Positions 3-1,133 of a stretch of DNA of 1,135 nt are shown one piece after another. The stretch lies in NCBI GenBank assembly GCA_000004985.1, contig GG739536.1, one strand, 5' to 3'. Each line of letters starts with the position of its first letter. Positions within the stretch are counted from its first letter, which is position 1. This stretch comes from Naegleria gruberi (taxonomy: Eukaryota). Below the pieces are notes generated by a model. The model saw only the letters and a program-made list of their open reading frames with translations. It ran no database searches and was not told where the DNA came from. The translations under genes and the position numbers were made by a program.

Positions 3-92
3 TACTCTCAACAACTTATAGAGATAGTGGCATCTATGTGTAAACATGATCCTAATTCAAGAATAACATCAGGAGAGATTATCAGAATTCTC
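3..92 (+). other. Protein kinase catalytic domain, extreme C-terminal portion (subdomain XI-like)
   Basis: Translation YSQQLIEIVASMCKHDPNSRITSGEIIRIL. This matches the conserved end of eukaryotic-type kinase domains: a hydrophobic helix, then C(W/K)..DP..RP(s/t)..ei...L. Only the tail is visible, so the catalytic motifs (VAIK, HRD, DFG, APE) would lie upstream of the window. Confidence 0.55.
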
Positions 93-1133
93 ACACCCTA
101 TGAAGTCAAAATAACAGAATTTGGAAGAGCAAAGAGCTTCTATACAGAAAAAGAATACGAAAAAGCACTGTTGATTTTGAATCAAATTATTGAAAGTGAC
201 CCAACAAAAAGCATTTTTCTCCATCAGAGATACCTCACATTTAAAAAATTAAAGAATTATGAAAAGGCAATTGAAGATTTGAATAGAGCTTTAGAATTGG
301 ATCCCAACAATGCAAGTTATCTGAACAGCTTGGGTGTTTGCTACAAGGAAGGAGGTTGTGTAAAAAAAGATTGGGATAAGGCTATTTCATTATTTGAAAG
401 GTCTCGCAATGGACAAGCATTTTACAATTTAGGAATAATTTACAAAACGCGTTTTTCCAAACAACCAAAGTATAAGAAGAAAGACCCTTTAATCGAAAGA
501 AGAATGAATGAAGCATTCTTATTGGGTGCTGAAAAGGATAACAAGTTATGCCAACAAGAATATGGGCTCCTTTGCTTGAATTGTAACGATTATTTGAAAG
601 CAGTGGAGTGGTTGAAAAAGTCAGACACTCCACTATCCAACACATATTTGGGAAATCTCTATATGAATGGTTCTACAACAGTACAAAAAGATCCAAGAAA
701 AGCCTTTGAATACTATTCAAAATCCAACACCATTTCATATCATGCCTATTGTTACGAAGAAGGTATTGGAACACAAAAAGACCCACAAAAAGCTTTTAAA
801 ATGTATCAAGAAAATGAAAGGTTGATGGATTGTAAACTTGGAATGGGAAGAATGTATTTTAAAGGTTGGGAGGGAACAAACCCAGACTATCAGAAATCAT
901 TCAAGTATTGCACTGAAGTATTCGAATATTGTATAAATACTAAGGACAATCAAGACTTGAAAAACGAAGCAATGTATTACTTGGCAGAAATGTACTATTA
1001 TGGGAAAGGAATACCTGAAGATGAGCTATTGCACCATACTGAAAAGGCTGCTAGTTATTACAATTTATTAGTTTTTGTGAATAAGAATGTCATGTTCAAA
1101 ATTGGAGAAATGATTTATAAGCAATCTAACCCT
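3..1133 (+). CDS. Internal fragment (5' and 3' partial) of a large protein: C-terminal end of a Ser/Thr (TKL/TK-like) protein kinase domain followed by TPR-like and Sel1-like repeats
   Basis: I translated frame 3 by hand (codons starting at nt 3) and found no TAA, TAG or TGA through nt 1133, 377 codons. In ~33% GC DNA stops are expected about every 13-14 codons; under a simple base-composition model the chance of such a run is of order 1e-12 to 1e-13 (own approximate calculation). The translation has coherent protein-like motif structure, described in the sub-features. All other frames contain frequent stops (e.g. frame 1: tag at 19-21 and 25-27, taa at 64-66). The CDS runs off both window edges, so the true start and stop are outside the window. 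Confidence 0.9.
123..314 (+). other. TPR-like helical repeats (about two units) linking the kinase tail to the Sel1-like array
   Basis: Translation GRAKSFYTEKEYEKALLILNQIIESDPTKS / IFLHQRYLTFKKLKNYEKAIEDLNRALELDPNNA. The second unit is 34 residues with the TPR-typical Y, A, L/A positions and the terminal L.DP.N motif (ALELDPNNA). The first unit ends in a similar SDPTKS. Confidence 0.5.
312..1133 (+). other. Array of ~7-8 Sel1-like repeats (SLR; TPR-related), continuing beyond the 3' window edge
   Basis: A recurring ~30-45 aa unit matches the Sel1 consensus a..LG.mY..G.GV.kD..kA..wy.kAA. Examples: SYLNSLGVCYKEGGCVKKDWDKAISLFERS (nt ~315-404); NTYLGNLYMNGSTTVQKDPRKAFEYYSKS (nt ~639-725); HAYCYEEGIGTQKDPQKAFKMYQENER (nt ~741-821); KLGMGRMYFKGWEGTNPDYQKSFKYC (nt ~834-911); AMYYLAEMYYYGKGIPEDELLHHTEKAASYY (nt ~969-1061). 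The unit at nt ~417-548 is atypical, with a basic insertion. The final unit (VMFKIGEMIYKQSNP) is truncated by the window edge. Confidence 0.65.

Follow-up and report, generated by a model that had tools for sequence, protein, structure and literature searches.

A probable kinase and helical-repeat fusion gene of Naegleria gruberi on a contig that truncates it at both ends

Solenoids built from TPR or Sel1 repeats provide surfaces for binding proteins, and PknG is one of the bacterial Hanks-type Ser/Thr kinases with a C-terminal TPR or Sel1 array. In eEF-2K, an alpha-kinase is covalently joined to a SEL1-like C-terminal helical domain that provides a docking platform for the substrate eEF-2 (PMC9258954). 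Here, we analyze contig GG739536.1 of the Naegleria gruberi assembly GCA_000004985.1 (1,135 nucleotides, all of which make up the window referred to below), and we conclude that its gene very probably encodes a eukaryotic-type Ser/Thr kinase or pseudokinase, from a family of the Naegleria lineage, that an 8-residue linker connects to an uninterrupted alpha-solenoid made up of two TPRs and at least eight Sel1-like hairpins. The resemblance to eEF-2K is one of functional analogy, in that the kinase would carry its own SEL1-like module; eEF-2K is, however, an atypical, calmodulin-regulated alpha-kinase, whereas the kinase end in the window is that of a conventional eukaryotic-type protein kinase (ePK). 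Pfam scans of the window protein gave no match to Alpha_kinase (PF02816) at E ≤ 10, and therefore the protein is not an alpha-kinase or a relative of eEF-2K.

Bacterial Hanks-type Ser/Thr kinases (e.g., P0132, Candidatus Uabimicrobium) likewise place an N-terminal Pkinase domain before TPR or Sel1 repeats, but they are prokaryotic, usually have long linkers or transmembrane segments, and lack the Naegleria tail motif described below. A word-indexed search baited with an artificial chimera (kinase domain 2 of the Naegleria lovaniensis protein P0126 fused to the window protein) returned many Pkinase-plus-TPR proteins from Planctomycetota and Candidatus Uabimicrobium, together with several metagenomic Pkinase-plus-Sel1 proteins (P0167, P0212, P0187, P0157, P0197, and P0226); for P0167, P0212, and P0187, the Pfam Pkinase match ends near position 200 of 263, without the tail found in the window. 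An initial annotation made from the sequence alone had pointed to bacterial kinase-TPR proteins as comparable systems. It had also called the architecture unusual, and this was overstated, since Pkinase-plus-Sel1 and Pkinase-plus-TPR combinations are readily found in Naegleria and in many bacterial and metagenomic proteins, indicating that fusions of kinases with helical repeats are common. A kinase with a helical-repeat docking module is thus biologically familiar, real but ordinary, and neither opens nor closes an open question. What is new here is modest, namely, the link to a kinase and the hybrid order of TPRs followed by Sel1 repeats, both of which are unannotated in the public record.

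The window is AT rich (GC content of 31 to 35%) and is read through from its first base to its last codon by a 377-codon frame (frame +3, nucleotides 3 to 1133) that holds no stop codon, while each of the remaining five frames holds 18 to 32; the chance of an open frame of this length at the base composition of the window is about 7e-15. The translation is 100% identical to one database protein, EFC35228.1/XP_002667972.1 of N. gruberi (351 amino acids [aa]), which is publicly labeled "predicted protein, partial" and for which the precomputed domains are TPR and Sel1 only. Since the window is the whole contig, it contains an interior portion of one N. gruberi protein-coding gene, which is truncated at both ends.

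Residues 1 to 31 (nucleotides 3 to 95, plus strand, as for all features below) form the C-terminal end of a eukaryotic-type protein kinase domain, corresponding to helices alphaH to alphaI and subdomains X to XI and including the stretch DPNSRIT with the conserved Arg; the kinase-domain end present in the window is YSQQLIEIVASM. The remainder of the kinase domain, catalytic motifs included, falls beyond the contig boundary on the 5′ side. We derived a profile from the kinase domains of Naegleria proteins, six in all (the two of P0127 and those of P0128, P0129, P0131, and N. gruberi P0150), the members having been retrieved mainly via kinase-domain similarity and P0126 and P0130 having been left out as a safeguard against circularity. 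This profile aligns residues 1 to 31 to its positions 250 to 280 of 284 (E = 1.5e-7 as a single comparison) and scores the first 40 residues at 23.4 bits, while the best of 20,000 shuffled sequences scores 8.7 bits and none of the 20,000 reaches 10 bits. Furthermore, the motif YS..[FL]I.[IL]V..M....P..RI, which marks the domain end, is present in the window as YSQQLIEIVASMCKHDPNSRIT. On the strength of the profile match and the shuffle control, we take the tail to be real and to belong to the Naegleria-lineage ePK family, in line with the initial annotation, which had read the first 30 or so residues as the last conserved subdomain of a kinase. A lineage-specific profile can thus confidently assign a 30-residue domain stub that falls below generic Pfam thresholds.

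When the first 32 to 41 residues are scanned alone, the sole Pfam family found is Pkinase (PF00069), with residues 2 to 27 aligned to positions 233 to 258 of 263 (E = 0.12 to 0.18), a match to the expected family and domain end that is nevertheless not significant; in the full-length Pfam scan the Pkinase match is absent, as expected of a 30-residue stub. An exhaustive HMMER (phmmer) search with residues 1 to 42 against 1.84 billion representatives (cutoff, E ≤ 0.001) returned four non-self matches, among them two multidomain kinases in which the aligned segments are exactly the C-terminal ends of the kinase domains: P0126 (N. lovaniensis XP_044546712.1, with three tandem kinase domains) and the kinase-ankyrin protein P0125. 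The other two, the bacterial tandem-repeat protein P0123 and the DUF4116-repeat protein P0124, were rejected as chance matches with E values that derive from summed repeats. By BLASTP, the window segment YSQQLIEIVASMCKHDPNSRITSGEIIRIL shows 46% identity to the tail of the intact domain 2 of P0126 (YSTNFIKIVASMLRPRPSERITSQEAIEML) and 43% to that of its degenerate domain 3 (YSMELIEIISSMLHVQPSQRITAKQVCQLL). A phmmer search of PDB with the 41-aa tail gave chance matches only (L24, Teb2, and recoverin) and no kinases, but a single-sequence search with this stub is uninformative because the piece is so short.

The proposed combination of a kinase with a Sel1 array is seen in a protein of the same genus. 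P0130 (N. lovaniensis XP_044546736.1, C9374_006591; 725 aa) is an uncharacterized "protein kinase domain-containing protein" in which Pfam places a Pkinase domain at residues 176 to 435 (positions 2 to 260 of 263, E = 9.8e-47) upstream of an array of seven Sel1 repeats (E = 8.1e-91). Compared directly by BLASTP, the window protein and P0130 give a single colinear alignment (E = 5e-19), in which window residues 1 to 39 pair with P0130 residues 407 to 445 (the kinase tail) and the alignment continues into the Sel1 array, with residues 40 to 103, the two TPRs, appearing as an insertion relative to P0130. The two proteins share the genus, the kinase tail motif (YSDSLVKIVESMLKFLPEQRIT in P0130 versus YSQQLIEIVASMCKHDPNSRIT in the window), and a short linker that leads into Sel1 repeats; they differ in that P0130 lacks TPRs and its seven Sel1 repeats are near consensus, whereas the window has two TPRs before a more divergent and partly degenerate Sel1 array. 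The proposed architecture thus exists in Naegleria, with the complete kinase domain of P0130 sitting where the window frame leaves the contig, and this supports the earlier suggestion that a kinase is fused directly to a Sel1-type array. In PDB, NEK1 is the closest match to the P0130 kinase domain (E = 2.8e-23), and CDPKs, PhK, and STE20-like kinases rank below it. Judged by its sequence, the domain is generically Ser/Thr-like.

Downstream of the tail, residues 40 to 377 (338 aa) comprise two TPRs and, after them, an array of about eight Sel1-like repeats. In the full-length Pfam scan, Sel1 (PF08238) is found in five stretches (E = 3e-26; 91.3 bits against a cutoff of 30.7), and TPR_11 (E = 4.5e-11; 42.7 bits against 26.8), TPR_1 (E = 3.4e-8; 33.4 bits against 27.8), and TPR_2 (E = 2.9e-8; 33.7 bits against 27) also score above their cutoffs, so that both TPR (PF00515/PF13414/PF07719) and multiple Sel1 repeats are assigned, with a helix-hairpin solenoid. 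NCBIfam scanning of the protein gave subthreshold TPR-type matches only. An AlphaFold2 model built from an 18-sequence alignment is all-helical, with 20 helices, a mean predicted local distance difference test score (pLDDT) of 88.5, and a predicted template modeling score of 0.75; its confidence exceeds 90 across most of residues 40 to 350, and the fold is also confident in the repeat units without a Pfam match. On this model, residues 40 to 377 are predicted to be one continuous helical solenoid, as had been anticipated along with a length of at least 330 residues and a linker of about 10 residues, for which we measure 338 and 8, respectively.

Fold comparison of the model with solved structures places it among the Sel1-repeat proteins. 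The top Foldseek matches in PDB are Legionella LceB (8sxq; E = 2.9e-11, query-based template modeling score [TMq] of 0.65) and an Oxalobacter Sel1 protein (6ok3; TMq of 0.69), followed by Escherichia coli c5321 (4bwr), LpnE (6deh), and HcpC (1ouv), with consensus TPR proteins, SEL1L, and OGT/SPINDLY ranked below the Sel1-repeat proteins. This bacterial group (with 6ork as a second Oxalobacter entry) has a window-like solenoid over about 350 columns, with E values of 3e-11 to 9e-8 and TMq of at most 0.69; its members differ from the window protein in being stand-alone, often secreted proteins without a kinase domain and with about 20% identity.

Taken together, the kinase C-lobe would end at residue 31 and the solenoid would begin eight residues later, and with a linker of only eight residues the repeat array must sit near the catalytic domain. 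As the mechanism with the best support, the TPR/Sel1 solenoid may then act as a protein-binding platform that brings a substrate, a regulator, or a localization partner to the adjacent kinase, making the protein a self-contained kinase with its docking module, in which the array would pick the substrate, the regulator, or the location.

Several points weigh against this interpretation. Only about 31 residues of the kinase domain are present in the window, not the domain itself, and the match to Pkinase stays below the whole-domain gathering threshold of PF00069 (12 bits against 31.7), which we attribute to truncation, the window covering only about 26 of the 263 profile positions, and do not count as evidence against the domain. 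P0130, the closest full-length homologue, was found with the chimeric query, although the pairwise BLASTP used the window protein alone. At about 25% identity over the repeats and without both TPRs, it ranks as a relative at the level of a paralogue and cannot be taken as a proven orthologue. A close relative of the Sel1 region was not found, the word-indexed search giving three weak non-self matches. The scaffold function suggested for the solenoid is modeled on the role of the helical domain in eEF-2K.

The alternative that survives best is that the domain upstream of the contig is a degenerate pseudokinase, so that the protein would be a noncatalytic scaffold in which a pseudokinase fold is joined to the TPR/Sel1 solenoid. 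The initial annotation had held that an active kinase and a pseudokinase could not be told apart in this window, and it was right, as the contig does not reach the catalytic motifs and both intact and degenerate relatives share the tail. In an alignment of ten kinase domains of the family, seven, that of P0130 among them, have an intact VAIK Lys, HRD, DFG, and APE, while the other three are degenerate, with HGD in P0126 domain 1, HRS and GFG in P0126 domain 3, and YGS without a DFG in P0127 domain 1. The tail motif is kept in all ten and is thus uninformative on catalytic competence. The loss of catalytic motifs beneath a conserved tail in three domains speaks for a pseudokinase, as does the window tail being nearly as close to the degenerate domain 3 of P0126 as to the intact domain 2. 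The majority of domains are intact, however, including that of the sole Sel1-bearing relative, and the known degenerate domains sit in tandem-kinase proteins and not beside repeat arrays, leading us to consider a pseudokinase unlikely, though less so than the alternatives that follow.

The Naegleria-lineage ePK family itself (N. lovaniensis XP_044546712.1 and P0127 to P0129, N. fowleri P0131, and N. gruberi XP_002671859.1) shares the tail motif of the window but differs in what accompanies the kinase, which occurs in tandem copies, behind N-terminal DUF4116 repeats, or without a partner module; none of these members has TPRs plus Sel1 repeats. Literature searches on Naegleria with Sel1 and kinase, or on the Naegleria kinome, found no paper describing this family. 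We offer, as a tentative idea that we would not call probable, that a Naegleria-specific signaling kinase family has repeatedly swapped its accessory module (tandem kinase or pseudokinase, DUF4116, Sel1, or TPR-Sel1 hybrid). On this view, the N. gruberi member would be an adaptor-kinase or pseudokinase scaffold that is specific to its species, diverges rapidly, and has a binding partner of its own. If true, the family would be a natural example of how a deep-branching eukaryote has rewired kinase targeting through the exchange of modules. Two side observations concern the same proteins. With three and two tandem kinase domains, respectively, some of which have lost HRD or DFG while keeping the tail motif, P0126 and P0127 are tandem kinase-pseudokinase proteins in Naegleria. 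In addition, the DUF4116 repeat unit of P0124 (…LEIVRAACEHDPNFIRY…) resembles the kinase tail motif (IEIVASMCKHDPNSRIT) with a repeat-summed E value of 1e-4, which we judge a coincidence, and DUF4116 repeats also lie N-terminal of the kinase in three family members (P0128, P0129, and P0131), which is a curious co-occurrence.

It is improbable, more so than a pseudokinase, that the contig is a dead gene fragment, be it a pseudogene remnant, an unplaced haplotig piece, or assembly debris. The contig is only 1,135 bp long and holds nothing else, no high-identity orthologue was found in other Naegleria species, and two repeat units are degenerate, all of which would fit such an origin. Set against this are 377 codons of AT-rich DNA without a stop or a frameshift and a predicted fold that is confident throughout the repeats, the units without a Pfam match included.

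A chance likeness of the first residues to a kinase, with the gene encoding a TPR/Sel1 repeat protein only, as the public annotation implies, is very unlikely. This reading can draw on the absence of Pkinase from the full-length Pfam scan and its subthreshold score (E = 0.12) in the scan of the first 32 to 41 aa, on the PDB search without kinases, and on the two repeat-inflated nonkinases among the four matches of the exhaustive search. It is largely refuted by the family profile, which matches at the correct domain end with a score that no shuffled sequence approaches, by the colinear alignment with P0130 that runs from the tail into the Sel1 repeats, and by a frame that is open upstream to the first base. 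Finally, an origin of the array in an eEF-2K-like alpha-kinase or a contaminating bacterial STK-TPR gene, suggested by the kinase-SEL1 fusion in eEF-2K, by the many bacterial Pkinase-plus-TPR and Pkinase-plus-Sel1 proteins, and by the best TPR and Sel1 sequence matches being bacterial or metagenomic, is refuted for practical purposes by the missing Alpha_kinase match, a tail that matches ePK subdomain XI and specifically Naegleria kinases, the GC content, the absence of an exact match in 185,579 bacterial and archaeal genomes, and the bacterial Pkinase-plus-Sel1 proteins having Pkinase matches only to about position 200, without this tail.

With respect to the individual units of the preferred kinase-repeat fusion, we scanned each predicted hairpin singly with Pfam, and the E values per unit are from that scan, while the helices are those of the AlphaFold2 model. 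The linker PYEVKITE (residues 32 to 39; nucleotides 96 to 119) is bounded by the kinase-profile match, which ends at residue 31, and the TPR_6 match, which starts at residue 40, and is predicted to be part of one long helix (residues 23 to 48; pLDDT of 63 to 82). The first TPR is weak (residues 40 to 73; nucleotides 120 to 221; TPR_6, E = 0.011; TPR_2, E = 0.037), with one helix ending at residue 48 and another spanning residues 52 to 65, and the second is canonical (residues 74 to 103, or 74 to 107 in the unit scan; nucleotides 222 to 311; TPR_1, E = 1.1e-9; TPR_11, E = 4.6e-8; helices 70 to 82 and 86 to 99).

The Sel1 array opens with Sel1-like repeat 1 (residues 104 to 136; nucleotides 312 to 410; E = 0.0031; helices 104 to 116 and 124 to 134), which carries KDWDKAISLF at residue 122. 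It is followed by two degenerate hairpins that have no Pfam match when scanned singly: hairpin 2 (residues 137 to 179; nucleotides 411 to 539; helices 137 to 153 and 162 to 177) and hairpin 3 (residues 180 to 208; nucleotides 540 to 626; helices 181 to 193 and 197 to 207, with pLDDT above 90). Hairpin 2 contains a Lys-rich insertion, KTRFSKQPKYKKKDP (nucleotides 450 to 491; residues 150 to 163), that could be a basic loop or a patch resembling a nuclear localization signal and that is the only low-confidence stretch inside the solenoid (pLDDT of about 63 at residues 151 to 160).

Sel1 repeats 4 (residues 209 to 242; nucleotides 627 to 728; E = 8.3e-7; KDPRKAFEYY) and 5 (residues 243 to 272; nucleotides 729 to 818; E = 9.9e-7; KDPQKAFKMY) come next, the best Sel1 stretch of the full-length scan (residues 212 to 241) falling within repeat 4. 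They are followed by repeat 6 (residues 273 to 315; nucleotides 819 to 947; E = 0.0022; helices 275 to 287 and 296 to 313) and repeat 7 (residues 316 to 359; nucleotides 948 to 1079; E = 7.4e-5; helices 317 to 333 and 339 to 357). The start of a further unit, with KIGEMIYKQ (residues 360 to 377, or 358 to 377 in the unit scan; nucleotides 1080 to 1133; helix 361 to 373 at low pLDDT), is truncated where the contig stops on its 3′ side and is too short for a Pfam match. Within repeats 4 and 5, a 28-nucleotide direct repeat (683 to 710 and 773 to 800; 82% identity, 90-nucleotide spacing), the one notable repeat at the DNA level, spans the cores KDPRKAFE and KDPQKAFK, suggesting that a single 30-residue unit was duplicated in tandem relatively recently.

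Elsewhere in the window, open reading frames in the other frames or on the other strand were rejected as spurious (at most 87 aa, in frames with 18 to 32 stops), and no Rfam families, tRNAs, or significant tandem repeats were found in it. An inverted repeat at nucleotides 602 to 634 in the coding region (14 nucleotides, 86% complementary, with a 5-nucleotide loop) has no Rfam match and is probably due to chance. Exact-match DNA scans of metagenome and prokaryote genome collections gave no overlapping contig with upstream sequence, and an exact look-up of the annotated protein gave no record either.

The public record for XP_002667972.1 can be improved by describing it as the C-terminal part of a probable kinase-repeat fusion and not merely as a TPR/Sel1 "predicted protein." Its model spans nucleotides 36 to 1088, starting at an internal Met (residue 12, nucleotide 36) and stopping after VFVNKN (nucleotide 1088), and the 47 nucleotides 3′ of it begin with GT and close with AG at the final contig base, as though this whole stretch had been predicted to be an intron. 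Reading on past nucleotide 1088 gives VMFKIGEMIYKQSNP, which carries on the repeat pattern and is helical in the predicted structure. Because the read-through continues the repeats and the GT…AG interval runs to the contig end, both ends of the public model look like prediction artifacts.

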